From a virus: a DNA stretch of 64,000 bases. The DNA lies in IMG/VR virus record IMGVR_UViG_3300045988_173593, positions 1 to 64,000 of that record; one strand, written 5' to 3'. Below the pieces are notes generated by a model. It worked only from the letters and a program-made list of their open reading frames with translations, searched no databases and was not told where the DNA came from. The translations under genes and the position numbers were made by a program. This document shows positions 1,129 to 64,000 of this stretch, piece by piece; the first letter of the stretch is position 1, and each line of letters starts with the position of its first letter.

Positions 1129-1135
1129 ACAGGCA

Positions 1136-1459
1136 TCATTTCCTGATCCCTCTCAGCCTGTCGTTTTCCTTTTCAAAGAGCGCAATCAGCGTTTTATGCA
1201 ATTCAATCTGCCGCTTTTGCGCCTGTATCTGCATGTCCTTGTAATGCTCGGACAGCAGAATCAGATAACACGTAAGCGACATCACCGCCGCTATGAAATA
1301 CCCCATCGAGGCATTTATGTCATTGCTGCCGTAAAACTGATACAGCGATACGCCTGAAAGCATGACTGAAACCAGCACAAATAAAATCATGATTGCCATA
1401 GCAAAATCTCCCTTGTTGATTATTGAACCATGAATCATAGACAGAATAACTCCGTCCAT
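1136..1459 (-). CDS. hypothetical small membrane protein (2 TM)
   Basis: Two hydrophobic helices. Lies downstream of the Gly-rich gene on the same strand. Confidence 0.45.
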   Translation of the reverse strand: MDGVILSMIHGSIINKGDFAMAIMILFVLVSVMLSGVSLYQFYGSNDINASMGYFIAAVMSLTCYLILLSEHYKDMQIQAQKRQIELHKTLIALFEKENDRLRGIRK

Positions 1460-2548: not shown

Positions 2549-2612
2549 AATCAAATATTTTTCTATTATTTTTTATTTTCTGCTGTATAATAGAAGCGAA
2601 AGGAGCTTGATT

Positions 2613-3623
2613 ATGCCATATATTACACCGGAAATAAAAAAGGCCCTGCTGAACTTAATAGAAGATGAAGGTTCAGCGCTTGAACTATCCAGAAAGACGG
2701 GAATTTCTCATTCCACATTCAGCAAGTATATTTCAGGGGGAATCTCGCGAATAAATCAGGCAAATTGGAACCTGATAGCCCCCTTGCTATTACCATATTT
2801 ACCGGAAATAGAACGCGACAAAGTAAGAAGTCAATTAACAGTTCGACAGCAAATCAATCCGGAAAGACATACCCCCCCGGCCACTCGCAACACAATCCGC
2901 AACACTCCGGAACTCCGCGAGTGTATTAAAGATGCGATGCTGGAACAGGGAATCCGTGGCGCGTCTGAGTTGTGTAAACAGATTGGATATGATACTCCCG
3001 GGACTTTGGAGCGGCTTCTCTCCGGCAAGATCAACTGGTTTCCAGACATGCTGTCCGCTGTTCTGGATAATCTGAAGATCAACCATGATGATGCGCCGAT
3101 GTCGCCGGCGGAACGTGGTTTGTTGCAGCCGGAGGGAATTTATTACAATGACGGAACACCGAAAACCCGTGCAGTTCTTGTGCATTATCAGCCCGTGATA
3201 TCATGGGCGAATGCAGCAAGTTATATTGATTGTTTGATTAGCAACGATGGAGCAGTAATGAAAAAATGGAGTCCGGATGAGGTAGATGAAACGGTTCCGG
3301 TGCCTCTGGATATACGCGGAGTTTGTTCAATTTTCCGGATTTCCGGTCAGTCGATGGAACCGGCGATTAATGACGGAGATATTATTTATTGCGAACAGAT
3401 GATGGATTTGCATACCATTCCTGACAAGCGTGTTGTGGTTGTAAAGTTTTCGGACTGCAACAAGTTTGAGGATTGTATTGTCTGCAAACGTTTCCGCCGA
3501 ATCGGTGATAAGATTCTCTTGACCAGTGACAATCCAGCCGGTCGTGAGTTTGAACTTGAACCGCAGGATATTACATGGATCGGAATCCTCCGCAAATTGA
3601 CCAAGAACGGTGATACTATATGA
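2613..3623 (+). CDS. CI/LexA-like repressor: N-terminal HTH regions plus C-terminal S24 peptidase (SGQSMEP ... K)
   Basis: Ser-Lys dyad motif GQSMEPAINDGD and a downstream Lys. RBS AAGGAG before the ATG. The ORF opens at a TTG at 2607. Confidence 0.85.
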   Translation: MPYITPEIKKALLNLIEDEGSALELSRKTGISHSTFSKYISGGISRINQANWNLIAPLLLPYLPEIERDKVRSQLTVRQQINPERHTPPATRNTIRNTPELRECIKDAMLEQGIRGASELCKQIGYDTPGTLERLLSGKINWFPDMLSAVLDNLKINHDDAPMSPAERGLLQPEGIYYNDGTPKTRAVLVHYQPVISWANAASYIDCLISNDGAVMKKWSPDEVDETVPVPLDIRGVCSIFRISGQSMEPAINDGDIIYCEQMMDLHTIPDKRVVVVKFSDCNKFEDCIVCKRFRRIGDKILLTSDNPAGREFELEPQDITWIGILRKLTKNGDTI

Positions 3624-3720: not shown

Positions 3721-3996
3721 ATGGAAGATGAAATTAAATTTCTGAAAGAACGTATTGCAAGACTGGAAGAACGTATCCAGTATGCAGATGAAAAAATAAG
3801 ATCCAATAAGGTATCTGTTTATTTCATTTTTTTAATCTTGATAGTGTTCTTTTTTCTCGTGATGGAATTATACTATCGGGACGGAGAAAAAGCCGAAGTC
3901 CTTAAGGTGCTTGATTCAAAAGAGACAACGGAACAACGTTATATGCTGATGGATGATAAAAGGGAGCAGATAAAAAGTGGCACTCAGAATCATTAA
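3721..3996 (+). CDS. small coiled-coil/TM protein
   Basis: RBS AAAAAGGGAAACGG. One TM segment. Confidence 0.4.
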   Translation: MEDEIKFLKERIARLEERIQYADEKIRSNKVSVYFIFLILIVFFFLVMELYYRDGEKAEVLKVLDSKETTEQRYMLMDDKREQIKSGTQNH

Positions 3997-5080
3997 AAAC
4001 AGATACTATATGTATTTCCGGGACGAGCACGGAAAGCTCCGGACAATTGCCACTCATGCTTCACTTAATGAAAAAGAAGAGGCTCTGGCGTTTGAAAAAG
4101 AATACATGACACAACTTCGTGCCAAAAAGCGACGCCTCCGGATTTTAAAGGACTTCCCCGAATATGTCGCCATCCAGCCGGAAGCCAAACCGGATTTTGT
4201 AGCGGAAGCCCAGCAGCAGAGACGCGGAAGTATGAAATTATCTGAAATGTGGGAAACCGCTTGTAAATACAGGCAACTTTCCGACACTCATAAAAAGGCG
4301 TTGGAACGCTTCATAAAATCAACAAAATTGAAGTATGTATCTGATGTAACTCCCCAAATTGCACTTGCCTACCTTACAAATACCTATGGAGCAGGGAATG
4401 GAAAAACATTCAATAATAATAAAACATACTTGAATACTATTTTCAAACTTTGTGTTGTGGAGTCTGGTATTTCTGGTTCTCCTTTTGATTCAGTTTTGAA
4501 TATGCGCTTGAAAAATGTTGAAGTCCACAGGAAAATAACAGTTGAAGAGTTCAACCGTCTGTTTCATGCCGCTGCTGAACCATGGAAAACAGCCCTTTTA
4601 ATGTCATGGCATACAGGAATGAGGGTAAGTGATTGCTTTACCTTGAAATGGGACGAAATTCAAGGTGATGCGATTATAAAAATTCCTAATAAGACATTGC
4701 GCTTCAATCGTTCTGTTTATATCCCAATACATAAAGAGTTGCAAGATCATTTGAATACATTACCGAAGCCAAAAGACAAAAAACAAGCTGTTTTATCGCC
4801 GTTTCTTACATCAAGATTCAAACGGGTTTCCGGTGCTAGAATGCGCTATATCCAGAATCTTTTCAAAACATGTAAGGTTTTAGATACAAAAGATGGAAAA
4901 GCCAGCTTTCACAGTCTTCGTGCAACGTTTATTACACGTTGCGAAGAAGCGGGAATTCCCCGTTCGGCAATTCGTGGTATGGTAGGTCATGTATCCGATG
5001 TTACAACAGATAATTATAGTCAGGACAAGGTAACTCCACGCCTGATATTAAACTTGCCATCTGTATGTAAAAATGTATGA
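3977..5080 (+). CDS. int: tyrosine recombinase / phage integrase
   Basis: C-terminal HSLRATF...GH...Y catalytic signature. Arm-binding-type N-terminus. Lies adjacent to the att core. Confidence 0.9.
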   Translation: MALRIIKNRYYMYFRDEHGKLRTIATHASLNEKEEALAFEKEYMTQLRAKKRRLRILKDFPEYVAIQPEAKPDFVAEAQQQRRGSMKLSEMWETACKYRQLSDTHKKALERFIKSTKLKYVSDVTPQIALAYLTNTYGAGNGKTFNNNKTYLNTIFKLCVVESGISGSPFDSVLNMRLKNVEVHRKITVEEFNRLFHAAAEPWKTALLMSWHTGMRVSDCFTLKWDEIQGDAIIKIPNKTLRFNRSVYIPIHKELQDHLNTLPKPKDKKQAVLSPFLTSRFKRVSGARMRYIQNLFKTCKVLDTKDGKASFHSLRATFITRCEEAGIPRSAIRGMVGHVSDVTTDNYSQDKVTPRLILNLPSVCKNV

Positions 5081-7390: not shown

Positions 7391-8131
7391 ATGGATGCGG
7401 TTCCGATTTACAACGTAAATCCCGGTGCTGGAAGCGGTTTCAACGGCTGGGAAGCAATGGCGCTTTTGAACAATGGCAACAGAAACAACGGCTGGGGTGA
7501 CGGCGGCTGGTGGATCTGGATTCTTCTCCTGTTCTGCTTCTGGGGCTGGGGTGGTAATGGCTGGGGTGGCAATGGAGGACGCGGTGGTTGCGGATGTTGC
7601 TGTAACTCCGGAATCGGTGCTCTCGGTGCCGATCTCGCAATCACTGACGCAACCAATATTGCGGAAATCAAAGCCGGTCTCAACTATACGGCACAGACGC
7701 AGGTGGGACAGACCAATCTGATGGGGCAGATCAAGGACAATATGTTTGCCGGTTTTGCCAATCTGAACAATGCGGTAACAAACTCCGCATTCCAGAATCA
7801 GCTCGGCCAGCGCGATCTTCAGGCTCAGATTGCGTCCTGCTGCTGCAATACCCAGTCCAGCATTGCGGCTGTGAACAACAACATCACACAGCAGTTCGCC
7901 CAGCTGAATTACAACAACGCGATGCAGACTTGCGAAGTCAAGCAGGCCATTGCGGCAGAAGGCGCGGCGACTCGTGCGCTTATCAATGCGCAGTACACAC
8001 AGAACCTGGAACGCCAGCTGGCGGAATCCAAACAGCAGCTTTTCGTTTATGAAAAGTTCGGCCGTTATGCCAATAACGGCTGCTGCGGATCGACTCCTGC
8101 TTGCGGCTGTGCTTGCGCGACGGGTTGCTGA
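7391..8131 (+). CDS. hypothetical Gly/Trp/Cys-rich (GWGGNGWGG, CCC motifs) and N/Q-rich protein with a TM segment
   Basis: ORF with an RBS. Unusual composition. Confidence 0.5.
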   Translation: MDAVPIYNVNPGAGSGFNGWEAMALLNNGNRNNGWGDGGWWIWILLLFCFWGWGGNGWGGNGGRGGCGCCCNSGIGALGADLAITDATNIAEIKAGLNYTAQTQVGQTNLMGQIKDNMFAGFANLNNAVTNSAFQNQLGQRDLQAQIASCCCNTQSSIAAVNNNITQQFAQLNYNNAMQTCEVKQAIAAEGAATRALINAQYTQNLERQLAESKQQLFVYEKFGRYANNGCCGSTPACGCACATGC

Positions 8132-38504: not shown

Positions 38505-39947
38505 TCACCCCACGTTTCCGGCGGCAACCACAATGATCTTTCTGTTCGAGTATTCGCCGAGCAGAAAATACCCGGTCAGGTCGTAAAGATGGTCTTCCTG
38601 CGTTGTGTCTACATCATCCGGGTCGCGCTGGCTTCTCTGAAGCACTGGAACAGTCCTGATAAAGTTCCGGCAGTGATCGAAAACAAACAGCCCCGGGTCG
38701 GCATCGCGTTCAATTGCCCCCGTCAGCCTGTCTCGAAGAAAAGTAAGCATCTGGTGCCGTGTTCCAGGAGCCTTGCTGCACGGTTTGAAGAATACTCCGT
38801 AATCCTCAAATTGTTTGGCAACAGTAGACTGCGAAGCGGACGATGAAGCAAAAATTGCGGAGTCGGCAATGCTTTCATGCACATGATACCCCAGCATTTT
38901 CTCTGTTTCCCTGATCCGTTCCGCACGGTCACGGATCGTTGATTTGTCGCCTTCGTTTGGTTTTCCTGTGGATCCGTAAAGTTCCTGAATCAGGAACGCA
39001 TCGCCGGGAATCGTAGGACGCCGTTCTCCGCTTGGCAGAACATAATCGGTTCCGTCCGACACGGCGAACCATCCAACCGCCCACGGGTGCGAATTTCCGT
39101 CATCGTAGCTTTTGACGATATACCACGAATCAGGAATACGGAATCTTGGCATGACATGAATTGATTCACGCCATAAGTCATCCACCGCGCCGCCGGCGGT
39201 GATGTTCCAGTCGCCTTCCAGCATCGCCTTGACAAGCCAGTCCTGTCCCAGACCTTTCAGACGGTTCGCATATTCTTCCTGGTTCAGCGAAGGATTGTCG
39301 GAAAGTTTCGCAGGAATGAACTGCCGGAGCATCCCGCCCTCTGCCGCCGGAGTCCGCCAGATTTCCCCGGCTGGCTGAGGATCAATGAACATCGCCTTGA
39401 CCCAGTTATGCCCCGGACCACCCGGATTGGAACCGCAAAGGATTTTCGGAAATGTCAGATTCGGGATCATTTTCACAACGGCGGGATCGGCTTTTATCTG
39501 CTTCGGAACACGGCATCTGCCTCGCAGAAACCGATATTGATATTCCGTGAAATGTGTCAGTTCGTCAATCATCAGAACCCCGATTTCCGCGCCCTGATAC
39601 TTCATCACGTCTTTTTCATATTGGCAGTGGCAGAGATGAATCACGCTTCCTGATTCCATGAATCGAATCTTAGGCGGTGCTGTCGTAATCTTGACTTTTC
39701 CGGATTCAACCTCGCTTGCAAGAAGACCGGGAAAACCGGTTTCCCCCTCGAAGTGGTTTTTCAGAAGATCGTCGCTCAACCTTCGGAACAAATAAACCTG
39801 CAACTCCCTCACGTTCATGCAGAGAAAGATTGCAAGGGCGCGGATCAGAAAACTTTTCCCCCCGCCGGCTGCCCCTCCGAATAAAATCTCGGTCGCGTCG
39901 CTTTTCAGAACTTCGCCCTGCCGTTTGTGCAGAATCAGATTACTCAT
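38505..39947 (-). CDS. terL: terminase large subunit
   Basis: Walker A GGAAGGGKS. Nuclease-domain Asp residues. Confidence 0.9.
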   Translation of the reverse strand: MSNLILHKRQGEVLKSDATEILFGGAAGGGKSFLIRALAIFLCMNVRELQVYLFRRLSDDLLKNHFEGETGFPGLLASEVESGKVKITTAPPKIRFMESGSVIHLCHCQYEKDVMKYQGAEIGVLMIDELTHFTEYQYRFLRGRCRVPKQIKADPAVVKMIPNLTFPKILCGSNPGGPGHNWVKAMFIDPQPAGEIWRTPAAEGGMLRQFIPAKLSDNPSLNQEEYANRLKGLGQDWLVKAMLEGDWNITAGGAVDDLWRESIHVMPRFRIPDSWYIVKSYDDGNSHPWAVGWFAVSDGTDYVLPSGERRPTIPGDAFLIQELYGSTGKPNEGDKSTIRDRAERIRETEKMLGYHVHESIADSAIFASSSASQSTVAKQFEDYGVFFKPCSKAPGTRHQMLTFLRDRLTGAIERDADPGLFVFDHCRNFIRTVPVLQRSQRDPDDVDTTQEDHLYDLTGYFLLGEYSNRKIIVVAAGNVG

Positions 39948-45146: not shown

Positions 45147-45914
45147 TTACTGATTTTTAGTCGGTCTTCCAAAGGCGTCTTTTTTTGTTGTTTCAAGTTT
45201 TAAGCCTAATTTTTCCGCCAGTTCCTCCCCTGATATGTATTTCTCTTTTGCGTTTAATTGAAATCCGGTGATAAATTTATTCATGTTTTCAGGCGTATCA
45301 AAAACGATAACCCGGTAATAATCTTCGTTTTCAAGATTTTTATATTTCGCCATTGCGTCTTTACGCTTCTTCTTCATCTCGTTGATTTTTTCAACATCAG
45401 ACTGAACTTCTTCAGGCAGATCATAACCGTTGATTTTTGAAAGCTCAGTTTCGTTGAACATGATTTCAATATCCGCCTGGGTGAATCCGACGTCTGCAAA
45501 CTCGACCCCGTCATCAATAAATAAATCCGCAAGTTTACTGTAATCGAAAACTCCTTGCATATTTGGATTATTCAGGCGGATATTCAATTTGCGTTCCATT
45601 TTGTCATCAACGTCAATAGCCAGAACATCGAGTTCATAATCTTTTGTCTTCATGAGTTCATCAAGTACGGATAATCTTTGATGACCCCCTACAACGTTTC
45701 CAGTGCGCTGATTCCACACAATCGCATTCGCCAGCCCTTCCTTTACGCTTTTTTTTAGCTTTTTCCGGCTTTCATCATCTATTTCTCGCGGGTTATATTC
45801 CGCCTCATGCAGTTGTGACCTATGGACACGTTGCGGTGTAAATATTTGATATTTGCATAGTTTATTAACTTGTTCAGCTGTTTCGTTAAACTCATTTTTT
45901 TTATTGTTGGACAT
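45147..45914 (-). CDS. ParB/Srx-like nuclease domain protein
   Basis: GGHQR motif context. RBS AGGAGAGG before MSNNKK. Confidence 0.65.
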   Translation of the reverse strand: MSNNKKNEFNETAEQVNKLCKYQIFTPQRVHRSQLHEAEYNPREIDDESRKKLKKSVKEGLANAIVWNQRTGNVVGGHQRLSVLDELMKTKDYELDVLAIDVDDKMERKLNIRLNNPNMQGVFDYSKLADLFIDDGVEFADVGFTQADIEIMFNETELSKINGYDLPEEVQSDVEKINEMKKKRKDAMAKYKNLENEDYYRVIVFDTPENMNKFITGFQLNAKEKYISGEELAEKLGLKLETTKKDAFGRPTKNQ

Positions 45915-46590
45915 AAGAACCTCTCCTGTATTGAAAAACATCACGCGCGTGAATAACATTTGCCAACGGGAATTTATTTTCGACCTTTGCCCAGTCATCC
46001 GGGTAATAGGATTGAAGCATTATTTGAGCATCAGGAAAAAAAGGACAGCTTAAGCTTCGTTCGGAAAACTGATATTCTGTAGGCGGCAATATCTTGTTGA
46101 GTTTCAGATATTGAAAAACTTTACTGCTGTTCCAAAACGCCAGCGGAAATAGTTTTGAATGCTTATAATCCACCCCTCCGTGCTCATTTATCATTGCTTG
46201 TCTTTCTATGCTTTCATACGCCATCATCCCGTATGCAATCCAGTTACATTGAAAAAAATCACGGACATAATTTTCAATATCAGAAAAATATATTTTAGGC
46301 ACACGGGAAAGCTCAATGCTTTTGTGCATATATTTTTGCTCTTTATAAATATCACTCAGCTCAAAATGCGGAACATGCAGAATTTTTACCCTATAACGGT
46401 TTTCAATATACCGGAAATAATTGTCCTGAAGAGTGCAATGATCCACATAATACATATAGAATACATATACCGTTCTGAAATACTTTTTGCACAAATCAAG
46501 AAGACAGACGCTATCTTTTCCGCCGCTGAAACCTACAATGATTTTTTGAGTTTCGCACTGTCCTTTTTTTATGACATCATACAAATCCAT
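45901..46590 (-). CDS. PAPS-reductase-like PP-loop ATP pyrophosphatase
   Basis: VGFSGGKDS P-loop. Confidence 0.7.
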   Translation of the reverse strand: MDLYDVIKKGQCETQKIIVGFSGGKDSVCLLDLCKKYFRTVYVFYMYYVDHCTLQDNYFRYIENRYRVKILHVPHFELSDIYKEQKYMHKSIELSRVPKIYFSDIENYVRDFFQCNWIAYGMMAYESIERQAMINEHGGVDYKHSKLFPLAFWNSSKVFQYLKLNKILPPTEYQFSERSLSCPFFPDAQIMLQSYYPDDWAKVENKFPLANVIHARDVFQYRRGSYVQQ

Positions 46591-46623
46591 AAGAACCTTA
46601 TATATAATTCAAACTTTAATAAC

Positions 46624-46645
46624 AAAAGAGCTTTAAAGCTCTTTT
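46624..46645. terminator. bidirectional terminator AAAAGAGCTTTAAAGCTCTTTT
   Basis: Perfect hairpin with flanking runs. Confidence 0.55.
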
Positions 46646-46656
46646 GTTAATTGATC

Positions 46657-46773
46657 TCAAAGCGTCAATGCATACATCACGCGTCCATATTCTCTCTCAC
46701 GTCTTGTCTGCCACGCTTTCCGGGCAGCTCTACGCCTTGCCGCTCTTTTTGCTTTTGCTTTTTCACTCGCCAT
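46657..46773 (-). CDS. 38-aa highly basic small protein (MASEKAKAKRAARRRAARKAWQ...)
   Basis: RBS CAGGAGATAATT. Below the ORF-track length cutoff. Confidence 0.3.
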   Translation of the reverse strand: MASEKAKAKRAARRRAARKAWQTRREREYGRVMYALTL

Positions 46774-46823
46774 AATTATCTCCTGTTTTTTGCCATCATC
46801 ACCATGATAACGGCTTATACTTA

Positions 46824-46840
46824 CCCAGGATTGTCAATTT
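46824..46840 (-). promoter_or_regulatory. CCAGGATTGTCAATTT motif copy
   Basis: Upstream of the small basic gene. Confidence 0.5.
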
Positions 46841-46980
46841 GAGAATAGGCTGCATTCGGAAATATTCATGCAGAAACGGCGGTTTGTTCTTGTCTTTTGC
46901 TCAATGAAGGGAAAAAATATTGACGCATCGTGTATCTTTGAACGTAGAAAAAAAAATCTGAAAAAAATACAATTTTTCTT

Positions 46981-47694
46981 TCAAAAGGAATTTTCATTGT
47001 CCCATTTTTTAACCTGTTTACGCTCGTTTTTTGTCCCATTTTTGCGTTCAGGATTCAAACGCAGCTTTGCTCTTATTCTTTGCAGAATTCTTCCCGCCTT
47101 GCTTTTGGAAACCCCCATCTGTATGGCAATACTGCGGATCGTGCAGCCGTCTTCATATTTCAAACGGTAAAACTGGAATTCCTGCGGTGTCAGCTTCTTG
47201 AAACTGGAGTCTTTCAATACCCGGTTCCCGATGCCGAGTTCATTTTGAATTCCTGTATGGATTGCCTGCCGGGTAACGCCGAGATACTCCGCGACATCGG
47301 ATAAACTCTTACAACCGGACAATCTCAAAGCAAGCGCACGTGCTGTCCGGGGCTTTTCCGCTCCAAGTATGAGACATGAAACCGCTAATTTAAGATTTAC
47401 TCCTGAAACTTCAATTTCTTGCCCGTCTTTCTTAAAATAAAATGCTTTTTCATCTTCATCAAGGACAAGATCGTTTTCACCATAGACATTGCCAAGTTCT
47501 TCATTTAATGGAGCCGTTGATTTGGCAAAATGCTTGATTCCGCTTTTTTCTGTATGGTTGAGAATTCCATAAATTCTACATGACTCGTCAAACTCGCAAT
47601 CGGGGCAACGTCTTCCTATTTTTCTTTTCCCGAAACATTCAGGACACCCGGAACTGATTGCTTTTGAGTCTTTTTTCTCCGTAAATTCACTCAT
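46981..47694 (-). CDS. zinc-ribbon protein with two sigma70 region-4-like HTH domains, a candidate phage transcription regulator
   Basis: LTPQEFQFYRLKYEDGCTIRSIAIQMGVSKSKAGRILQRIRAKL resembles sigma region 4. Confidence 0.55.
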   Translation of the reverse strand: MSEFTEKKDSKAISSGCPECFGKRKIGRRCPDCEFDESCRIYGILNHTEKSGIKHFAKSTAPLNEELGNVYGENDLVLDEDEKAFYFKKDGQEIEVSGVNLKLAVSCLILGAEKPRTARALALRLSGCKSLSDVAEYLGVTRQAIHTGIQNELGIGNRVLKDSSFKKLTPQEFQFYRLKYEDGCTIRSIAIQMGVSKSKAGRILQRIRAKLRLNPERKNGTKNERKQVKKWDNENSF

Positions 47695-47878
47695 AACCCC
47701 TCTCTTTCCCTTGAAGATTCAATATTTGGTGATATTTGTATCCTTGGTTTCAGAGATGATCTTCAAGTTTTGAGAGGATGAAATCATAAAAAAGCCGGAA
47801 TTGCGGGTTCCGGCTTTTGCTTTTCACCGCCTCATACAGAAGCGGATTTTGTCAACTTGTAAATTTTGGCAACTTATA

Positions 47879-48271
47879 TTATGGACAATCCTCCCGGCTG
47901 TATCTGTGATCTCCTTCGTATCTTGCTCCGGCTGTCCTGTGTCCGTTTCCTTCAGGCTGATCCAGGAATTTTATATTCTGAACATAAATCCGTGTTTTGC
48001 TCCGAGTTTCACCGGTTTTTCTGTCCTGCCATTGCTCATTCTTAAGGAAACCCTCAACCAGAACGGAGGAACCTTTTCCGGTGAATCGCGGGATAACCTC
48101 CGCCGTTTTACCGAAACATACGCATTCCCCGAAGTAAGTATCGGGCTTCTCGCGTGTCCCCTGATTGACCGCGATCCCGAAGGAACATATTGCCGTCTGA
48201 TTGTTTGTATACCGGATTTCCGGATTCCTGGTCAGATTCCCCATCAGAAAAACCTTGTTATAGCTTGCCAT
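47879..48271 (-). CDS. ssb: single-stranded DNA-binding protein
   Basis: NKVFLMGNLTRNPEIRYT OB-fold signature. Confidence 0.85.
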   Translation of the reverse strand: MASYNKVFLMGNLTRNPEIRYTNNQTAICSFGIAVNQGTREKPDTYFGECVCFGKTAEVIPRFTGKGSSVLVEGFLKNEQWQDRKTGETRSKTRIYVQNIKFLDQPEGNGHRTAGARYEGDHRYSREDCP

Positions 48272-48683
48272 TGGATTGCGTTCCTTTCAATTTCAGATAA
48301 AGCTCCAATGCACTTCCGGCATCAGTCGGATAACTGTAACATTTGCCCTTAGATATAATATGCATATCAGTAAAATCAGTATTTGGAAGTTCGCAAATCG
48401 CATCAAAAATCTCTTCTAAAGTCGGTGCCGGAAAACAATACTCAGGATGGTTTCTGGAAAAAACAACTATCCGAGCCGTATCCATAACCGCTTCTTTAGG
48501 TAAATGTTCAAGGAGTTCAGATAACCTAAATCTGAACTCCTTGAACTCTTCTTTAATATATTCTATTTCATCCCACCGAAACACTGTATTCTGAAATGCA
48601 TCAGCTGGTATTTTTCTGCATGCTTCAAAATCAGGAACAATATCCTCAATTTCTCGTAATTTTTCCATTATTTCACCCTCCAT
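48258..48683 (-). CDS. hypothetical protein
   Basis: ORF. Confidence 0.5.
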   Translation of the reverse strand: MEGEIMEKLREIEDIVPDFEACRKIPADAFQNTVFRWDEIEYIKEEFKEFRFRLSELLEHLPKEAVMDTARIVVFSRNHPEYCFPAPTLEEIFDAICELPNTDFTDMHIISKGKCYSYPTDAGSALELYLKLKGTQSNGKL

Positions 48684-48750
48684 AGAATGATTCCGAGAAT
48701 CAGGGCAATGCCGAGCCCCGGAATCAGATTTGAAATCAGTTCAGACAAGT

Positions 48751-49140
48751 TCATTTCTTCTCTCCGACCAGTTTTTCTTTCAACGCCTCTTTTGCCAGCA
48801 TGTAAATCTCTCCGGCTTCTTTCGGTAACTCCTCAGACACAAACCTTGAATTGGAAATTGCCGGGAGAACCTTTATCAGCGCCATTTCCTTTGTTGTCGG
48901 AACGAATACCGAAACAAGGAAAAATACCACGAGTAAAGCGATACTTATAAAACAAGCTCGCAATTCAAGTTTCATTGCCGGGTGAAATTCTTCTTCACCT
49001 TCAGAGGCCATAAAAGTCGAAAATAATATGATAAGGCTTAATACCACCAGAATACTGGTAATAATGCATAAACCGATTAGAAAGTCATGTATTCCATCCA
49101 TCCTTGTAATCCAGTAAACTGTGCTTTCCGTAATTTCCAT
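48751..49140 (-). CDS. hypothetical membrane protein
   Basis: 3 TM segments. Confidence 0.5.
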   Translation of the reverse strand: MEITESTVYWITRMDGIHDFLIGLCIITSILVVLSLIILFSTFMASEGEEEFHPAMKLELRACFISIALLVVFFLVSVFVPTTKEMALIKVLPAISNSRFVSEELPKEAGEIYMLAKEALKEKLVGEKK

Positions 49141-49167
49141 GATTATTTTCCTTTCCCTTTGAGTTGT

Positions 49168-49446
49168 TTACCATTCATTTCCGTCTTGTTCCTTCTGTTT
49201 CAGCAAGTGCTCAATCGTTCGAAGCGACGTCACGGCGACATGCGCCGCTTCCTCCAGAATATGTTCCCGAGTCGCCCCCTCGATACAATTCATAAAATCG
49301 TTGACCGCCTGACAGAGTTCTCCGTATTCCTCTCCGATCACCATACATTGCATACTGTAGGCTGCCGGAAACCCCGGATGCTTTTTCTTTGCCTTTTCAA
49401 GTTCGATCAAAACCAGACCGAATACATCTTTCATTTTTTCGCCCAT
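49168..49446 (-). CDS. MazG-like nucleotide pyrophosphohydrolase domain protein
   Basis: EEYGELCQAV ... EE motifs. Confidence 0.45.
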   Translation of the reverse strand: MGEKMKDVFGLVLIELEKAKKKHPGFPAAYSMQCMVIGEEYGELCQAVNDFMNCIEGATREHILEEAAHVAVTSLRTIEHLLKQKEQDGNEW

Positions 49447-49449
49447 ATT

Positions 49450-49716
49450 TCACTCATCTCCTTCATTTTTTCTTTCAAACTTGCATCCCGGATTGAAAGA
49501 GTGCATCTTAGTGCACCCGCCGAACATCTCGTCAAAATAACGGCACTCCTCACAATTGGTCAGAGGCTCCGGCATTCCATGATGCTTCAGAATCACATCC
49601 ATAGCATGCCCGACCTCCTTTCTTACAAGCCCGGCCTCATCAAAAGTCCGGCAATCCTTTCCGGAATGCCAGTCACGATAGCGCCTCAGAATTTTAACGG
49701 CGTTTTTCAGTTTCAT
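49450..49716 (-). CDS. hypothetical Cys-containing protein
   Basis: ORF. Confidence 0.45.
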   Translation of the reverse strand: MKLKNAVKILRRYRDWHSGKDCRTFDEAGLVRKEVGHAMDVILKHHGMPEPLTNCEECRYFDEMFGGCTKMHSFNPGCKFERKNEGDE

Positions 49717-49718
49717 TT

Positions 49719-49925
49719 TTATTTGGTTCCTTCCAAAGTCTTTTTTACAATGTATTTTGTCATGGACACGAATTCAGGGTCTTTGTCATGCGTCTCCAGA
49801 ATATCCAGCAAACCGGAACGCAATCTTGCATTTTCCTGTTTCAGTTCGTCAATTCGTTTCAGGAGCCTTGTATTCTCCTCCGCCTGTTTCATCAAAAGAA
49901 TTTCAGTCTCAATATCGCAAGACAT
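49719..49925 (-). CDS. hypothetical coiled-coil protein
   Basis: ORF. Confidence 0.4.
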   Translation of the reverse strand: MSCDIETEILLMKQAEENTRLLKRIDELKQENARLRSGLLDILETHDKDPEFVSMTKYIVKKTLEGTK

Positions 49926-49947
49926 TTTTTATCCTTTTCACTTCATA

Positions 49948-50577
49948 TTATCCGTAATATGCTGCTCTCCACCGTGCCTTGATTTCCTCGGCGTTGAGCG
50001 GATGTTCTGCATTGTATTTTTTCGCCTGTTCAAGCAATGCCGTTTCCGACTCAAGCGAGTTGTTCAGCTTCGGCATTTTCTTGCCCTGACATTGGCAGCA
50101 GATACCAGCCAGCGAGCGTGTCATTGTTCCGCAAATTCTGCACGGCTCATATTTCCTGGTGCGGATATACGGGTATCTGTCGTTCTGACGGATGTTGTAG
50201 CACTTCCGGCAGATTGCGCCGCGTCCGCCGCCCATCGCCGGGGCTCCGCAATATTTGCAGGTCTTTGCCTCGCGTTCCGTAGGCTCATGCCTCTTATGGT
50301 ATTGCTGTTCGCGACGGTGCTTGTTATAACACTCCCGGCAAATCAGCCCGTTGTTGCACTCCTTAGGCAATGCCGGGGCGCCGCAGATGCGGCAGACGCG
50401 CGGGAGATCGCGAGATCGTGAGAGTGCAAAGTTGCGAGGTGAGGCAGACGCATCAGGCGGGACGGGTGATTTTTCATTTTTCATATTTTGCCTCCTCCGC
50501 ATTCCACGGAACCTGCCGGATTTGGAGTTCCGGCGGGAACTTTGCGATGTCTTTAAGGCTGGCGACGATTTTTTCAA
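49948..50577 (-). CDS. protein with three CxxC...CxxC zinc-ribbon repeats
   Basis: CRICGAP...CRECY x3. Confidence 0.5.
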   Translation of the reverse strand: MKKSSPALKTSQSSRRNSKSGRFRGMRRRQNMKNEKSPVPPDASASPRNFALSRSRDLPRVCRICGAPALPKECNNGLICRECYNKHRREQQYHKRHEPTEREAKTCKYCGAPAMGGGRGAICRKCYNIRQNDRYPYIRTRKYEPCRICGTMTRSLAGICCQCQGKKMPKLNNSLESETALLEQAKKYNAEHPLNAEEIKARWRAAYYG

Positions 50578-50585
50578 GGCCTTGT

Positions 50586-51944
50586 TTACTCATTATTTTC
50601 CTCCTGATCGTATTCATCGGTCAAGCCTGTATTTTCAAGTTCCATCATATCACCTATCTCATCATAAGCACATGGGCGCACACGGCGGAATTCGTCCATG
50701 TCGCCACAGGAAAAAAGTAGACGGGCAGTCTTACCCTGTGGTGTCATAGCCTCATAAATACCTTGTTTTTTGTATTTTCGGAAAAGAGCGTTCAATGCTT
50801 TCCTGTATCCGAACTTTTCCATACAGAGATCATAGGCTTTCGGGTGTGTCTGCCGCAATACAGACAGATGATTGTTCCGATAGAGCAGATCAGTTCCGCA
50901 GAACATACAACCATTACGCTCAATACGCCTGGTATTTCCGTCTTTGTTTTCATATTCAATATCATAGAGGGGCGAATATTCCAGCCGATAATAGCTGATG
51001 TAATTCCAAATGTCTTTTTCCGTCCAAAGCGCAATTGGCGAAACATGGTAAAACGCCCCGTCTTTAATATGATCTCTGCGACTTTCGAAAATATGCCCTC
51101 TTGTTGATACGTTGATCATGCGCGTATGGCTTTCTTCCGCCATCAGCCCTTTGATAATGACATCCACATCAAGTTGCTTTTGCAGCTCTTCCGAAGGCTT
51201 CTTTTTCAGGAGTGTGCAACAATGCTGGGAAAATTTGCATTCACGCAGAATATCGTAGTATTCTTTCAATTTGCCGTTTTCACTGGCTGTCTTTGAGTAT
51301 TTCAAAAAACACTCAATATTAATTCTGTGAGCATCCAGCTTGCTTGCCGATTTTCCGAGCAGAGGCAGACCATACTGTTCCATGCAGTATAGGAAATTCA
51401 TAGGATGTCCGGAGAAAAAGCAGTTCTCTTTCGTGAGTTCATACCCGCGTTTTTTTGCCGCGGCAATCAGAGCTTTCTGTCCGGCGAGTTTGCCGTCGTC
51501 CTTCAAAATCTCTGCGAGGCACCCTTCAGATTCAAGCTGTGCCACAAGCTGACGTGCGAACTCATAACGCAGCTCATCTTCCGGCAATGGACGCGGTTTC
51601 GTCTCATAAAAACGGTCTCCGTAATGTTCTTTCCCATACTTGCGGGCAAACGCCAGACTTTCCGGAAATTCGACACCCGTATTGCCGAAAATGCAAAGAA
51701 TGCGCTTGTGAAGTTCCGGACAAAAACGTTCGATTAAATCAGCAACGACTTCCGAATCTTTCCCTCCTGAAAATGCAAGTGCGATATTGTGGCGGCTCAA
51801 CACATCCGACTGCCTCAAAACCTCAACAGAAAGTTTAATTTTTTCATTTAACGGTTTTTTTTGAAACTCGTTGATTTCCTGAAATGTATATTTATCTTTT
51901 AACATTCCCCCGCTCCTTTCAATTTTTGAATCAACTCGTCCCAT
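50586..51944 (-). CDS. large PAPS-reductase-family PP-loop protein with a Cys-containing C-terminus (DndC/SspD-like architecture)
   Basis: ALAFSGGKDSEVV P-loop. 452 aa. Confidence 0.65.
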   Translation of the reverse strand: MGRVDSKIERSGGMLKDKYTFQEINEFQKKPLNEKIKLSVEVLRQSDVLSRHNIALAFSGGKDSEVVADLIERFCPELHKRILCIFGNTGVEFPESLAFARKYGKEHYGDRFYETKPRPLPEDELRYEFARQLVAQLESEGCLAEILKDDGKLAGQKALIAAAKKRGYELTKENCFFSGHPMNFLYCMEQYGLPLLGKSASKLDAHRINIECFLKYSKTASENGKLKEYYDILRECKFSQHCCTLLKKKPSEELQKQLDVDVIIKGLMAEESHTRMINVSTRGHIFESRRDHIKDGAFYHVSPIALWTEKDIWNYISYYRLEYSPLYDIEYENKDGNTRRIERNGCMFCGTDLLYRNNHLSVLRQTHPKAYDLCMEKFGYRKALNALFRKYKKQGIYEAMTPQGKTARLLFSCGDMDEFRRVRPCAYDEIGDMMELENTGLTDEYDQEENNE

Positions 51945-60960: not shown

Positions 60961-61083
60961 TCAAAACCTGTGCGATTCTGTAATCTTTTTGATTCTGAAA
61001 AGCCGCCCCGCCGCCGCGATTGCCAGAATCGCCAGCGCCGGCGCCATCAGAGGCAGGCACAGCCTGAGAAACTCATTCATCAT
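60961..61083 (-). CDS. small membrane peptide (MMNEFLRLCLPLMAPALAILAIAAAG...)
   Basis: An ATGA overlap couples it to the upstream small gene. Confidence 0.3.
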   Translation of the reverse strand: MMNEFLRLCLPLMAPALAILAIAAAGRLFRIKKITESHRF

Positions 61084-61252
61084 CCGCCTCGCTTTCTTCG
61101 TCTTCTTCGTTTTCCGGTTCGCCGTTGATATTTCCGCTTTCTTCATCGCCGTAGTCGTAATCGGGATTCTCCGTTCCGCATTCCGGGCAGACGGCATGAC
61201 CGATGTAAAAGTGACGCCCGCACTCGTCGCATTGCGTTGTCTCGTCTTTCAT
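61073..61252 (-). CDS. 59-aa zinc-ribbon protein with an acidic tail
   Basis: RBS GAAAAGAGAGG. CDEC...CPEC. Confidence 0.35.
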   Translation of the reverse strand: MKDETTQCDECGRHFYIGHAVCPECGTENPDYDYGDEESGNINGEPENEEDEESEADDE

Positions 61253-61268
61253 GAAAAACCTCTCTTTT

Positions 61269-61496
61269 CTAAAGGCTGATTGTCAACCCGGCGTTGACCG
61301 CCGCCTCATAAGCCATGACCGTATCGCGGAAGCCGCCGAACCACTGAACCCCCTGCGACGGACCGCCGCGAAACAGAAAAAACTCGATCAGCTTCTTTTT
61401 CTTTTCGCGCAAGAGATTGAGCGCGCATTTCCGTCCGAGTTCATACCGGTAGTCTTTGCCGGTTCTGATGATTTCCAGAAGTTCCTCGTCGCTCAT
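61269..61496 (-). CDS. hypothetical protein
   Basis: ORF. Confidence 0.45.
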   Translation of the reverse strand: MSDEELLEIIRTGKDYRYELGRKCALNLLREKKKKLIEFFLFRGGPSQGVQWFGGFRDTVMAYEAAVNAGLTISL

Positions 61497-61607
61497 TGAC
61501 CGTTCCTCCTTTCCGGTTGATTTTTTTTAACGTGTGATGTATATTCTGACATACCAGCCGACAACGAAACCGGCTGTCACCCCTGAAACAAGAAGGAAGA
61601 ATCTGTT

Positions 61608-61976
61608 ATGAGTGAAATCATAAAACTCTTCACCGCTGCCCTTGAGTTCATGAGTCCGTTTTGGACTGGCGTCGCGTTTGGTTTTCTGTTCGGATTTCTT
61701 GCTTTCCCCCGGATCAGCGGAAGCCCCGTTGCCAAGGAATGGCGCGATAAGCAGACCGCCAAGAAGAACCGGAAGAAGCGCCTTGCGCAGGTTCGGTTTC
61801 TTGCGGATCGCGGGCTTGAGTTCGACGCCGTTCAGACCATTTCCAGCCTTGAGACCGGAGAACGGTTTTGTCCGGAGTGTTTTGAAATGGACTGGACAAT
61901 TCACAAACTCAAACCCATGCACGAGCGATATAAGCCCGCAATTTTCTGCTCCCGGTGCGGGAGCCGTTACATTTGA
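61608..61976 (+). CDS. membrane plus zinc-ribbon (CPEC...CSRCG) protein
   Basis: RBS AAGGAAGAA. Preferred over the overlapping minus ORF 61527..62087. Confidence 0.45.
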   Translation: MSEIIKLFTAALEFMSPFWTGVAFGFLFGFLAFPRISGSPVAKEWRDKQTAKKNRKKRLAQVRFLADRGLEFDAVQTISSLETGERFCPECFEMDWTIHKLKPMHERYKPAIFCSRCGSRYI

Positions 61977-62275
61977 ACGATCGGACATTTTGTTCTTCAT
62001 GCTGTTAACGTCCTTTTGTATTTGAAACTTTACGTTGATTCGATTACAAGACGGATTGCAAGGGCTGATGATGCCGGAGCAATCCATCTGTGAGTTTTTT
62101 TGCGGGATTATTCCGTTACATCTTCAGCAGATTCATGCAGAGCGCGATAAGCGCAAGAATGAACGCTGTAATAGCGATGTGCTTCACGCTGATTCCGAGC
62201 GCGTTGTTTGCGCTGTATCTCAGCTGGCAGTATTCGCATTCGTGCTTCGGATTTTTGCACTGTTTCGGATTCATT

Positions 62276-62563
62276 TTACCGCCCTCCGAGCTGATAATCC
62301 AGTATCAGGATGCCTTTGATCTCCTGCTTGAGCTTGCCCTCTATCGGCAGGGTGTCGATGTAGCGGTAGATTGCCTCCCGGTCGGCGATGGCTTCCGCGG
62401 CGAGCGTGATAGCCCCGAACGGATTGCGTTTGATTCTCTGTTGCACCGTTGCCGGGAAACCATACCAGATCGGACGTGTCGGGAATTGTTCCTGGTCGTG
62501 GCGTTGCGCCAGTGAGATTGCTTCTTCATTCAGTGGAAGCCGGTTTGTGTGTCTGCAATTCAT
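62276..62563 (-). CDS. hypothetical early protein (MNCRHTNRLPL...)
   Basis: RBS GGAGG. First gene after the triple promoter-terminator array. Confidence 0.55.
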   Translation of the reverse strand: MNCRHTNRLPLNEEAISLAQRHDQEQFPTRPIWYGFPATVQQRIKRNPFGAITLAAEAIADREAIYRYIDTLPIEGKLKQEIKGILILDYQLGGR

Positions 62564-62634
62564 GCTCTCGCCTCCTTGTGATTAGCGAACATTTTTAATG
62601 TGTTTCTTTTCTGCCGGTTCAGAGCAAAAAAGAA

Positions 62635-62695
62635 GGCTTGCGGGGTTGAACCACGAGTCACAAGTCTCGCCTGTCCGAAGACAGCCCCGCAAGCC
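62635..62695 (-). terminator. cassette 1 terminator-like hairpin (11-bp perfect stem GGCTTGCGGGG, 39-nt loop) followed by a U-run on the minus strand
   Basis: Read directly. Confidence 0.5.
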
Positions 62696-62787
62696 AAAAT
62701 AAAACGCTTGCATGAAAAAATCGGGAGTGTGCCGTTTGACGGTACGACTGCCGCTTGTGAATCGAGTGGTTCAGACCCAATGCCTTT

Positions 62788-62816
62788 ACAATAGCCTGAG
62801 CTTTCACCGAAGTCAA
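62788..62816 (-). promoter_or_regulatory. cassette 1 promoter (minus: TTGACT-17-TATTGT) with CCGCTTGACT context
   Basis: Read directly. Confidence 0.5.
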
Positions 62817-62826
62817 GCGGCTTTCT

Positions 62827-62913
62827 GAAAAAAGTTGCGATTTTTTTCGTGTCCGCGCTCTGCGGCGCGGCGGCGTCCCGGATCGGTATCCGGCTCGTGT
62901 GTCGGCAAATCAT
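62827..62913 (-). promoter_or_regulatory. conserved 87-nt block copy A: A/T-rich UP-like tract, two small hairpins, a GGAGG-N6-ATG pseudo-start
   Basis: Near-identical to 63182-63267. Confidence 0.5.
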
Positions 62914-62978
62914 GGTTACCTCCTTCTGCAAAGGTTATTGATTGCTTTTTTGAGCCGTTTTCACGCGGGCACAAAAAA

Positions 62979-63049
62979 GGACTTGAAGAGGTTGAAAACA
63001 CGGCAGAAGACGTGCGCCGATCCTTACGGGTACAGCCCTCTCCAAGTCC
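62979..63049 (-). terminator. cassette 2 terminator-like hairpin (13-bp stem, 1 mismatch) plus a U-run
   Basis: Read directly. Confidence 0.5.
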
Positions 63050-63142
63050 AATAATAGACCTGAGGTATAAATGTTGGGATTTGTTGCCTTGACGGAAACA
63101 ACGCCCGCTTCTGCTTTCAGAGTTTTCAAGCTCCTTGCCTTT

Positions 63143-63171
63143 ACAATAATCGGCAGGGCTTGCGATTTCAA
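63143..63171 (-). promoter_or_regulatory. cassette 2 promoter (minus: TTGAAA-17-TATTGT)
   Basis: Read directly. The downstream TATTGTAAAGGCA is shared with cassette 1. Confidence 0.5.
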
Positions 63172-63181
63172 GCGGGTTTTC

Positions 63182-63267
63182 GGAAAAGTTGCGATTTTTT
63201 TCGTGTCCGCGCTCTGCGGCGCGGCGGCGTCCCGGATCGGTATCCGGCTCGTGTGTCGGCAAATCAT
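63182..63267 (-). promoter_or_regulatory. conserved 87-nt block copy B
   Basis: Near-identical to copy A. Confidence 0.5.
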
Positions 63268-63333
63268 TGCTTGCACCTCTATTGCTAAGGATTTTCGTTA
63301 TCCTCTTTCGCGCCGTTCCAAGGGCACAAAAAA

Positions 63334-63394
63334 GGGCTTGAGGGTTGGAACACGTGACTAACGACACGCCAGCCTTACGGCTGCCCTCAAGCCC
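63334..63394 (-). terminator. cassette 3 terminator-like hairpin (11-bp perfect stem GGGCTTGAGGG) plus a U-run
   Basis: Read directly. Confidence 0.5.
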
Positions 63395-63500
63395 AAAATC
63401 AAAACACAATGATTCGGTCTTGTAAAAATTACGGGAATCGTGCGCCGAGTTGACGGAACGACTGCCGCGTTAGTAAAGGGGTTCCAATCCCAATACTGGG

Positions 63501-63529
63501 AATATAACTCTAAAACCCCGTAATATCAA
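63501..63529 (-). promoter_or_regulatory. cassette 3 promoter (minus: TTGATA-17-TATATT)
   Basis: Read directly. Confidence 0.45.
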
Positions 63530-63557
63530 ACGCAAACTTATATTTTTTTTGAAAAAT

Positions 63558-63586
63558 TTGACTTGTTATAAAATAATTATATATTG
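63558..63586 (+). promoter_or_regulatory. sigma70-type promoter (TTGACT, about 17-nt spacer, ATATTG) for the + gene at 63611, divergent from cassette 3
   Basis: Read directly. Confidence 0.45.
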
Positions 63587-63610
63587 ATATAGAAAAAGGG
63601 GAAACAAAAT

Positions 63611-64000
63611 ATGCAAATAAAATGTAGCAAGTGTGGTCAATTATATAACGTTGACTTTTCCTTGGTTGGAAGAAAAGTTGAATGTGTTTGCGGTTTCAAG
63701 TGGTTTTTGCGTGAGCCTATGCCGCAAATAATGCCAGCTCGATCTCTTAACGAAGAACTTGAAGCAATATCTATGGAAGATATAGCGCGGTTCCCGGAAA
63801 AAACTGCTCAAAGAATATCAAATGCTATTTCAGCGCAATACATGAATTACATTAAAAAGACAAATATTATACAAGAAGAGTCTTTTAATGACGCTTATGA
63901 AAGTTTGAAAAATAATTGTGCATACGGTAATCCGGTTCCTGGCGTCTTTAAAGAGTTTTTCAAGTTATGCCGTAAAAAGAATACTGAAGATAAAAAGGCA
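63611..64000 (+). CDS. partial ORF (runs off the window) with an N-terminal zinc ribbon (CSKCG...CVCG)
   Basis: RBS AAAAAGGGGAAACAAA-ATG identical in style to the RBS of 1654..2049. No stop before the window end. Confidence 0.5.
   Translation, partial: MQIKCSKCGQLYNVDFSLVGRKVECVCGFKWFLREPMPQIMPARSLNEELEAISMEDIARFPEKTAQRISNAISAQYMNYIKKTNIIQEESFNDAYESLKNNCAYGNPVPGVFKEFFKLCRKKNTEDKKA

Follow-up and report, generated by a model that had tools for sequence, protein, structure and literature searches.

We analysed a 64,000-nt stretch of viral DNA (positions 1 to 64,000 of the IMG/VR record IMGVR_UViG_3300045988_173593, hereinafter the window), whose minus strand carries, between positions 62560 and 63530, three tandem units repeated with a period of 354-355 nt at the head of an early operon. 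Each of these units very probably represents a complete and autonomous c4 antisense RNA module of the type known from the immI region of phage P1. The fold of the RNA, its complementarities to nearby sites, the covariation of both, a layout identical to the one annotated in P1, and a copy number that varies among related phages were all established computationally. The coordinates of the single features are reported in Table 1; the other loci considered are designated by L numbers.

Each unit starts with a sigma70-like promoter. A first-pass annotation, made from the letters of the sequence, had described three cassettes composed of a promoter, a leader, and a hairpin terminator, and the promoter scan recovered its three promoters at the same sites. 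The 61000-64000 region contains eight promoter-like sites versus 2.8 ± 1.4 in shuffled sequences, and all the homologous units from other contigs share identical -35 and -10 boxes at an identical position. The three structures of 61-71 nt with stems of 11-13 bp followed by U-runs are also there, as annotated, but they are not plain hairpin terminators; the cores are branched three-way junctions, and the terminator scan missed them because it admits loops of 3-8 nt and not a branched fold. The U-runs (UUUUUU, UUUUUU, and UUCUUUUUU in units 1, 2, and 3, respectively) directly follow the GC-rich closing stems, and in each unit this combination is a predicted intrinsic (rho-independent) terminator. 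As for the leaders, they do exist between promoter and core, but not as plain spacers, since they hold a small hairpin displaying a site called a1, a second site (b1), and a further hairpin with a conserved CCGUCAA motif.

The three cores share the same three-way junction, made up of stem P1, a tetraloop-capped stem P2, stem P3, and a single strand. The P2 tetraloops are GUAA, GUAA, and UUCG in units 1, 2, and 3, i.e., of the GNRA or UNCG type of C4; P3 has 5 bp and an 8-nt loop and the junction single strand 7 nt in all three cores, and the P1 stems begin with GG, as in C4, whose 5' end is matured by RNase P at the base of P1. The fold energies are -37.7, -24.9, and -35.1 kcal/mol for units 1, 2, and 3, with z-scores of -6.3, -2.3, and -4.2. 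The Rfam search proposed in the first-pass annotation retrieved the C4 family (RF01695) for unit 1 (33.1 bits against a gathering score of 45, E = 8e-4), the alignment spanning exactly the three-way junction.

Two covariance models were then used, R1, derived from units 1 and 3 and a single viral homologue, and the broader R2. Units 1, 2, and 3 scored 90.8, 39.8, and 90.4 bits with R1 and 87.1, 51.5, and 80.3 bits with R2, and the models found exactly three copies in the window, the next R2 match reaching only 15.8 bits; scans of the window for tRNA and transfer-messenger RNA (tmRNA) genes were empty. In the reciprocal test, the best R2 match in the 2.4-kb immI region of phage P1 (L306) was located at 545-622, the annotated c4 lying at 544-620, with a weak score (16.9 bits, E about 1e-3). 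A MAFFT alignment of the full RNAs misplaced unit 2, and structure-guided alignments from the covariance models were used. In the 22 distinct cores, 100% of the cells are paired and 17 of the 21 pairs show compensatory double changes, counts that lean towards structure because the alignment was fitted by the model; when the 3' partners were slid by 1-3 columns as a control, only 32-55% of the cells were paired. Furthermore, an independent MAFFT/RNAalifold run recovered the a1 hairpin, P2, P3, and part of P1. Hence, the check by covariation that had been suggested for the hairpins found them to be conserved.

The window units gave no match to the sRNA-Xcc1 family of small RNAs (RF02221, gathering threshold 53 bits). 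RF02221 does match a divergent high-GC member located beside a tmRNA gene (L286), with a score of 66.4 bits; its sites follow the a1b1/a2b2 logic of the window units, and it is this member that ties the window family to the C4-like sRNA-Xcc1 group. In the 1-1868 region of L286, the 3' part of the tmRNA gene occupies positions 1-146, the sRNA-Xcc1-type unit, with adjacent a2-b2, positions 1062-1149 (minus strand), and a weak match to the Proteo-phage-1 RNA positions 1778-1868; the locus has the look of a prophage inserted at ssrA, the genome being of high GC content.

Two pairs of sites match the P3 loop (b') and the junction strand (a') of every unit by perfect complementarity over 6-9 nt; the first pair (a1, b1) lies in the leader of the unit itself and the second (a2, b2) beyond the U-run. 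The b' and a' sequences are UCGUUAGU and GUUCCAA in unit 1, UCUUCUGC and UUUUCAA in unit 2, and ACUUGUGA and GGUUCAA in unit 3. A small hairpin of the GGG/CCC type displays a1 in its loop, b1 lies 5-7 nt beyond a1, and a2 begins 12-15 nt past the closing stem. The arrangement called c4-a1b1, with a1 and b1 upstream of the core and a1 in a hairpin, was found in all three units; the C4 target proper, i.e., a2 together with a b2 overlapping the ribosome-binding site (RBS), is complete in units 2 and 3, and unit 1 has a2 only. No a+b site pair was found elsewhere in the window, the only ones being those inside the array. As a side observation, a hairpin (AGGAUAACGAAAAUCCU, positions 63288-63304, minus strand) between a2 and b2 of unit 1 is kept in the units of the same type in L109, L225, and L293-L296; it would draw the two target sites nearer to each other.

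To our search for homologous units in viral, genome, and metagenome collections, a pattern taken from the leader hairpin (GCGG..GT.GT..CCGTCAA...TCCC) contributed about 260 loci, mostly chance matches in coding DNA, 14 of which were real after filtering; further units were found through the surroundings of homologues of the first gene of the operon, coding for a 95-aa protein. A blastn search with the 1.1-kb region retrieved no match from 50,697 phage records. Another pattern, combining the -10 box and CCGTCAA, was discarded, since it returned chance matches only, apart from L004. All the homologues lie directly upstream of an RBS and an ATG, in the same orientation. The related units come from two records of Lentisphaeria metagenome-assembled genomes (MAGs), i.e., a short contig (L109) and a 5-Mb chromosome (L142), and from human-gut metagenomes; the putative host link to Lentisphaeria rests on these two records with related units. 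Moreover, none of 32 RecT-related viral loci carries the RNA, so that no link exists between the module and RecT.

The positions of a1, b1, a2, and b2 are fixed in every unit, and the sequences at these positions follow the RNA of the same unit. In the 24 distinct units, the expected position was complementary over 6 nt or more in 96% of the cognate versus 3.8% of the non-cognate combinations for b1, and in 88% versus 12% for b2; cognate and non-cognate sites were distinguished by these positional complementarity statistics and not by the duplex energies of short oligonucleotides. The same 24 units comprise 14 b' and 13 a' sequences in 20 combinations. One and the same a' occurs with differing b', and vice versa, as in L225, L252/L293, and L109, which share halves; thus, the a' and b' halves have been recombined among units and the determinants shuffled by recombination.

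The number of units varies among relatives that share with the window about 86-91% identity in the 95-aa first gene and, for the most part, 87-100% identity in the other early proteins they have in common. Upstream of this gene there is one unit in L293, L295, L296, L307, and L311, two in L294 and L309/L310, three in the window, L300, and L303, and four in L301. The core of window unit 3 is identical to that of the last unit of L301 (its fourth) and of L303 (its third), and both arrays open with a unit identical to window unit 1. The sole unit of L295 differs from window unit 1 by one base, in the P2 loop, and its cognate a2 and b2 sit directly on the 95-aa gene. Consecutive units are joined by a block embedding an RBS, an ATG, about 22 codons of a first-gene remnant (MICRHTSRIPIRDAAAPQSADT), and, after it, the stretch leading up to the next promoter; this remnant matches the first gene of L109, which begins MICRHTSRFPTREAAAPQSADT. 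The content of this block indicates, therefore, that the arrays arose by duplication or unequal recombination of segments comprising a promoter, an RNA, and the 5' end of a gene. Two identical units 546 nt apart are also present in L231 (106-735, minus strand), on a 1.2-kb contig, where they represent either a true duplication or an assembly wrap-around.

According to these data, we can depict the following working of a unit. A constitutive sigma70-like promoter would yield an untranslated RNA of about 156-167 nt, the 3' part of which would fold as the C4 junction; stem P1 and the U-run would terminate most transcripts, and the RNA would accumulate. As the RNA doubles as terminator, the repressor would be made in excess over its target. 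The exposed b' and a' would pair with a2 and b2 both on read-through transcripts, which would be the minority, and on the transcripts of incoming related phages, and, b2 being fused to the Shine-Dalgarno (SD) sequence, this pairing would block the translation of the next open reading frame (ORF) and hence the early operon, in the way in which C4 occludes the RBS at icd of P1. The a1 and b1 sites of the leader would pair with the same a' and b' in cis, leaving P1-P3 intact, as a decoy or a folding partner. With three RNAs of three specificities, the array would thus stack three RNA immunity locks on one another; the last of them (unit 3) would govern the real first gene, and the upstream ones would supply extra specificities. 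RNA 1 is cognate to the sole lock of L295; if all this is true, the lysogen would be immune to three immunity types and would exclude L295-type phages through RNA 1.

Several points weigh against the assignment of the units to autonomous C4-type immunity modules. The Rfam score of unit 1 is below the gathering score, and a 511-nt search gave no C4 report for units 2 and 3 at E <= 10. The product of the regulated gene resembles neither Icd nor Ant, so that the control of icd-ant known from P1 has no counterpart here. The duplex energies of short oligonucleotides from the three window units are not cleanly diagonal, and all the b' loops share a CUU that pairs beside the SD; specificity, therefore, rests on only 4-5 variable bases per site. 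We infer the transcription starts and stops, the action in trans, the processing of the RNA, and the immunity from sequence. Furthermore, the 95-nt junction repeat is a place where assemblies of metagenomes can be wrongly joined.

The last adverse point is that the sequence at the b2 position of unit 1 (AGCAATAG-AGG) is not complementary to the b' of the same unit (CGUUAGU); if the C4-module model is right, the lock of unit 1 is incomplete in the window contig. AGCAATAG is instead complementary to the b' of the first unit of L294, and the identical unit 1 RNA has a cognate ACTAACGAGG at the b2 position in both L301 and L295. Comparable single mismatches occur in the second unit of L300, the second unit of L303, and L296. 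These non-cognate sites look like recombinant junctions and may be assembly chimeras across the repeat; the b2 of unit 1 could thus be a recombinant or mis-assembled junction or else a lock left open. In the single unit of L296 (1076-1210, plus strand), both a2 (GTAGAAA) and b2 (GCAATAG) are non-cognate to its own RNA, whose a' and b' pair with GTAGCAA and GCATAAG, respectively; this locus could be an immunity-insensitive variant, comparable to a 'vir' mutant of P1.

In principle, other scenarios can account for an array of this kind. The units might be riboregulators working in cis only, whose a' and b' toggle between a1/b1 and a2/b2 on one read-through transcript, the short RNAs being by-products. 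Both sets of partners are indeed located within about 100 nt of the core on the same transcript; the supplement of PMC2864571 contains a proposal of competition between a1b1 and a2b2 in P1, and a statement of Weinberg et al. suggests a possible cis role for C4 copies overlapping terminators. Nevertheless, we regard this scenario as unlikely, since a pure cis switch needs no hypervariable, shuffled specificities, and the 20 combinations observed fit selection for heteroimmunity; moreover, window unit 1 and the second unit of L300 keep promoter, fold, and a1/b1 despite a non-cognate b2. A further argument comes from the C4 RNA of P1, which Citron and Schuster are said to have found, in 1990, to act in trans. 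Even less probable is that only the gene-proximal unit is functional and that the upstream ones are decaying relics, or mis-joins at the 95-nt repeat. The repeats are long enough to mislead short-read assemblers, and b2 is non-cognate in window unit 1 and the second unit of L300, as are a1/b1 in the second unit of L303; but arrays of 2-4 units recur across independent samples and assemblies (L294, L300, L301, L303, and L309/L310), and the upstream units keep their promoters, fully paired and compensated stems, and mostly all four cognate sites, the internal ones also retaining a stop-free frame.

The first-pass annotation had compared the cassettes to pR'-6S RNA-tR' of phage lambda, or to the tandem early promoters of T7, and had them read through by means of a phage processive antiterminator of the Q or N type. 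Part of this stands: a strong stem and a U-run lie about 160 nt past a promoter in each of the three cassettes, the units are autonomous, their predicted products are short RNAs of the size given above, the early genes beyond the array are accessible to transcription through read-through alone, and lytic growth requires some mechanism that permits it. The antitermination itself has found no support and seems to us as improbable as the relic scenario. The analogy with lambda or T7 does not hold, since what closes each unit is a conserved C4 junction whose loops complement the downstream RBS; the downstream genes have early recombination and replication functions (RecT, exonuclease, and DnaB) and are not the late genes that the lambda analogy needs, and the first unit has no upstream gene that might supply the factor in cis. 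The suggested search for an antiterminator retrieved no Q-, N-, or LoaP-like family from the 40 window proteins scanned (44 with four from related loci), small ORFs being only partly covered; the only transcription-factor candidates are a CI-like repressor and a protein similar to region 4 of sigma factors (46981-47694). Lastly, the unit is repeated and has a terminal inverted complementarity, which would also be expected of a dispersed repeat or miniature inverted-repeat transposable element (MITE) devoid of any regulatory role. To this scenario, which the first-pass annotation had named as one to be checked, we assign hardly any probability: no further copies were found in the window and none in the 32 RecT-related viral loci, and every homologue is placed just upstream of an RBS and an ATG in one orientation.

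Besides the sites for the antisense RNAs, the array shows stop-free frames across its internal units. ORF1 stops 24 nt before the ATG of ORF2 (62913), and the TGA of ORF2 shares bases with the start codon of the first real gene (ATGA). After dinucleotide shuffling, the frame was stop-free in 139 of 5000 cases for ORF1 and in 195 of 5000 for ORF2. Of the units examined, all 11 internal ones are crossed by an ORF that starts at the preceding ATG and extends as far as the following one, and in all seven that come first or stand alone each of the three frames is interrupted by stops; these counts are inflated by shared ancestry, the pattern still being found in at least four divergent unit types. 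One fully open frame is also present in the operon-embedded units of L004, L142, L005/L182, L241, and L263; there is none in L109, L225, and L286. As regards L004, the module and a 69-aa gene (7560-8080, minus strand) are flanked by a 17-nt direct repeat (AAAATGCCTGATTATCC), which corresponds to the stop/start junction of the neighbouring genes and gives the locus the aspect of a moron-like cassette insertion; a frame of 164 codons runs from the duplicated start through the sRNA into the small gene.

These frames raise a bolder possibility, of which we are doubtful and which we advance only tentatively, i.e., that the array acts as a logic device, in which RNA immunity 'barcodes' are stacked and recombine, with a relay of ribosomes through the stop-free units. 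Each extra unit would provide the lysogen with immunity to another immunity type and an infecting phage with another independent entry point for ribosomes. A ribosome starting at any unblocked lock would translate through the next sRNA gene, melting its fold and terminator, and would re-initiate at the next start codon downstream. In this way, transcription from the promoter of the unit itself would give an untranslated repressor RNA, and transcription from upstream a translated, unfolded read-through mRNA. Should this be so, the stop-free frames would point to an undescribed interplay between translation and the folding of an sRNA and terminator.

The comparison with known systems points in the first place to C4 of phages P1 and P7 (RF01695, clan CL00128), which shares with the units the three-way junction, a tetraloop on P2, a G-U closing pair in P3, the ...AAC before the 3' arm of stem P1, and the location of b' in the P3 loop and of a' in the junction strand. 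The immI region of P1 likewise has a1 in the loop of a small hairpin, b1 right after it, and a2 and b2 downstream; its annotated order (promoter, a1, b1, RNA, a2, b2, RBS, and ATG) is that of the units, with similar spacings, and its b2 (GTTAGTGA) runs into the GG of the RBS, just as the b2 of units 2 and 3 is fused to GAGG. The units also match the layout of the c4 and c4-a1b1 motifs as drawn in the supplement of PMC2864571, and few bases set their specificity, as in the heteroimmunity of P1 and P7. They differ from P1, however, in several respects. Their closing stem is followed by a U-run, which c4 of P1 lacks, and is hence predicted to be an intrinsic terminator as well; the leader has the additional CCGUCAA hairpin, a covarying structure between b1 and the core with its motif near the apex, which is absent from the c4 leader of P1; and the a2-b2 spacer, of 22 nt in P1, measures 27-40 nt. 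Instead of icd-ant, the units have as their target the first gene of an early operon with RecT, exonuclease, and DnaB, and there are one to four tandem units, each with its own promoter, below the Rfam threshold. The relatives, moreover, belong to Lentisphaeria MAGs and human-gut metagenomes, and the published range of C4 comprises Proteobacteria and their phages.

Tandem copies of a related RNA are known from a genomic island of Xylella fastidiosa, where five copies of sRNA-Xcc1 (sXF1-5) lie on one strand with a spacing of about 385 nt (PMC12189769). The sRNA-Xcc1 family (RF02221) has a C4-like three-way junction, and the Xylella spacing is close to the 355-nt period of the window. That cluster has been read as Hfq-dependent trans-acting sRNAs exported in vesicles (PMC12189769), and its description, on which our comparison is based, includes no promoter/a1b1/a2b2/RBS modules or differences in specificity. 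The 'Group 1' C4-like sRNAs of Acinetobacter baumannii resemble the arrays in the many C4 folds per genome, but are, by their description, proteobacterial and neither tandem arrays nor modules with their own targets. The pR'-6S RNA-tR' unit of lambda resembles the window units in that an operon opens with a constitutive promoter and a short transcript that is terminated, and differs in being a single unit that has late genes downstream, a protein antiterminator, and a simple terminator, none of which was found here. Phage morons, too, have their own promoter and terminator, but the units carry a regulatory RNA and its target instead of a protein gene. Beyond the Xylella cluster and the multi-copy Acinetobacter sRNAs, our literature search retrieved no further tandem C4 arrays.

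The claim that an array of this kind had not been described is thus true in part: the RNAs of Xylella and Acinetobacter have not been analysed as self-contained modules that differ in specificity, but both the c4 module of P1 and the five-copy cluster of Xylella were known. In other words, the kind of module is known, and its stacked arrangement in variable number is barely described. What is new here is a divergent clade, which is probably non-proteobacterial, the fusion with a terminator, the copy number of one to four, the combinatorial specificities, and the internal units spanned by translation frames. C4-type immunity is textbook knowledge but a narrow one (P1/P7 and proteobacterial prophages), and the current Rfam models miss this clade, in which the module heads a whole early operon in temperate phages from gut metagenomes and in Lentisphaeria genomes. 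At least 20 shuffled combinations and an array size differing between near-identical phages bear the mark of an arms race waged with few RNA bases over immunity to superinfection, and the family would allow one to predict which phages exclude which. The units might also serve as ready sets of orthogonal riboregulators, each with promoter, sRNA, terminator, and target.

Table 1. Features of the array and of other regions of the window (positions are those of the window).
Feature	Position	Strand	Remark
Unit 1 promoter	63501-63529	minus	TTGATA-17-TATATT; promoter scan; boxes kept in the first units of L301 and L303 and in L295
Unit 1 a1 and b1	63468-63487	minus	a1 TTGGAAC 63487-63481, b1 ACTAACG 63474-63468; 7-nt perfect complements to own core
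Unit 1 leader hairpin	63433-63468	minus	conserved CCGUCAA; pattern later used to find homologues
Unit 1 C4-type core and U-run	63328-63394	minus	core 63394-63334 (61 nt, 11-bp closing stem), U-run 63333-63328
Unit 1 a2	63315-63321	minus	TTGGAAC, cognate
Unit 1 b2 position	63279-63286	minus	beside SD of ORF1; AGCAATAG, non-cognate
Junction repeat D1, copy 1	63184-63278	minus	RBS, ATG, 5' gene remnant, region upstream of next promoter
ORF1, 110 codons	62935-63267	minus	5' remnant (MICRHTSRIPIRDAAAPQSADT), then through unit 2 promoter, RNA, and terminator
Unit 2 promoter	63143-63171	minus	TTGAAA-17-TATTGT; promoter scan
Unit 2 a1 and b1	63108-63129	minus	a1 TTGAAAAC 63129-63122, b1 GCAGAAG 63114-63108
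Unit 2 leader hairpin	63076-63108	minus	CCGUCAA
Unit 2 C4-type core and U-run	62973-63049	minus	core 63049-62979 (71 nt, 13 bp, longer P2)
Unit 2 targets	62919-62963	minus	a2 TGAAAAC 62963-62957, b2 GCAGAAG 62929-62923 fused to SD GGAGG
Junction repeat D1, copy 2	62830-62924	minus	95-nt block, 95% identical to copy 1
ORF2, 117 codons	62560-62913	minus	same 5' remnant, then through unit 3
Unit 3 promoter	62788-62816	minus	TTGACT-17-TATTGT; promoter scan
Unit 3 a1 and b1	62754-62773	minus	a1 TGAACCAC 62773-62766, b1 TCACAAG 62760-62754
Unit 3 leader hairpin	62723-62754	minus	CCGUCAA
Unit 3 C4-type core and U-run	62626-62695	minus	core 62695-62635 (61 nt, 11 bp)
Unit 3 targets	62571-62621	minus	a2 TGAACC 62621-62616, b2 TCACAAG 62581-62575 fused to SD GGAGG
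First real early-operon gene, 95 aa	62276-62563	minus	no Pfam or PHROG family
Divergent promoter-like sites and gene	63549-64000	plus	sites 63549-63585, gene from 63611
Large terminase	38505-39947		about 46% identity to TerL of proteobacterial phages

The window phage is temperate, as it harbors a CI/LexA-like repressor with a helix-turn-helix and an S24 domain (2607-3623) and an integrase (3977-5080). The early operon running leftward from the array codes for the 95-aa protein, RecT, a DUF2800 exonuclease, a DUF6291 protein, DnaB, and an SNF2/methylase protein. A search of viral contigs retrieved no relatives of the 95-aa protein, which shares no similarity with Icd of P1; its AlphaFold model (predicted local distance difference test score of 58) was too poor for a fold search.

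On the other side of unit 1, two divergent promoter-like sites (TTGAAA-17-AATAAT and TTGACT-16-TATATT) precede a divergent gene, and the array is therefore placed at a divergent control region. The product of this gene has a Zn-ribbon-like N-terminus and matches no Pfam or PHROG family; it is 194 aa long in relatives, and the gene is found beside the array also in L301 (99% identical) and L295. It may represent the other arm of a genetic switch.

Finally, the 45147-51944 region (minus strand) embeds two proteins similar to phosphoadenosine phosphosulfate (PAPS) reductases (50586-51944 and 45901-46590) and a ParB-like nuclease/methyltransferase-like protein (45147-45998), which, together with the sigma-factor-like protein, could form a DNA-modification module plus a late-gene activator. 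In L307 and L308, PAPS_reduct and Csf3 proteins are encoded just upstream of the unit.

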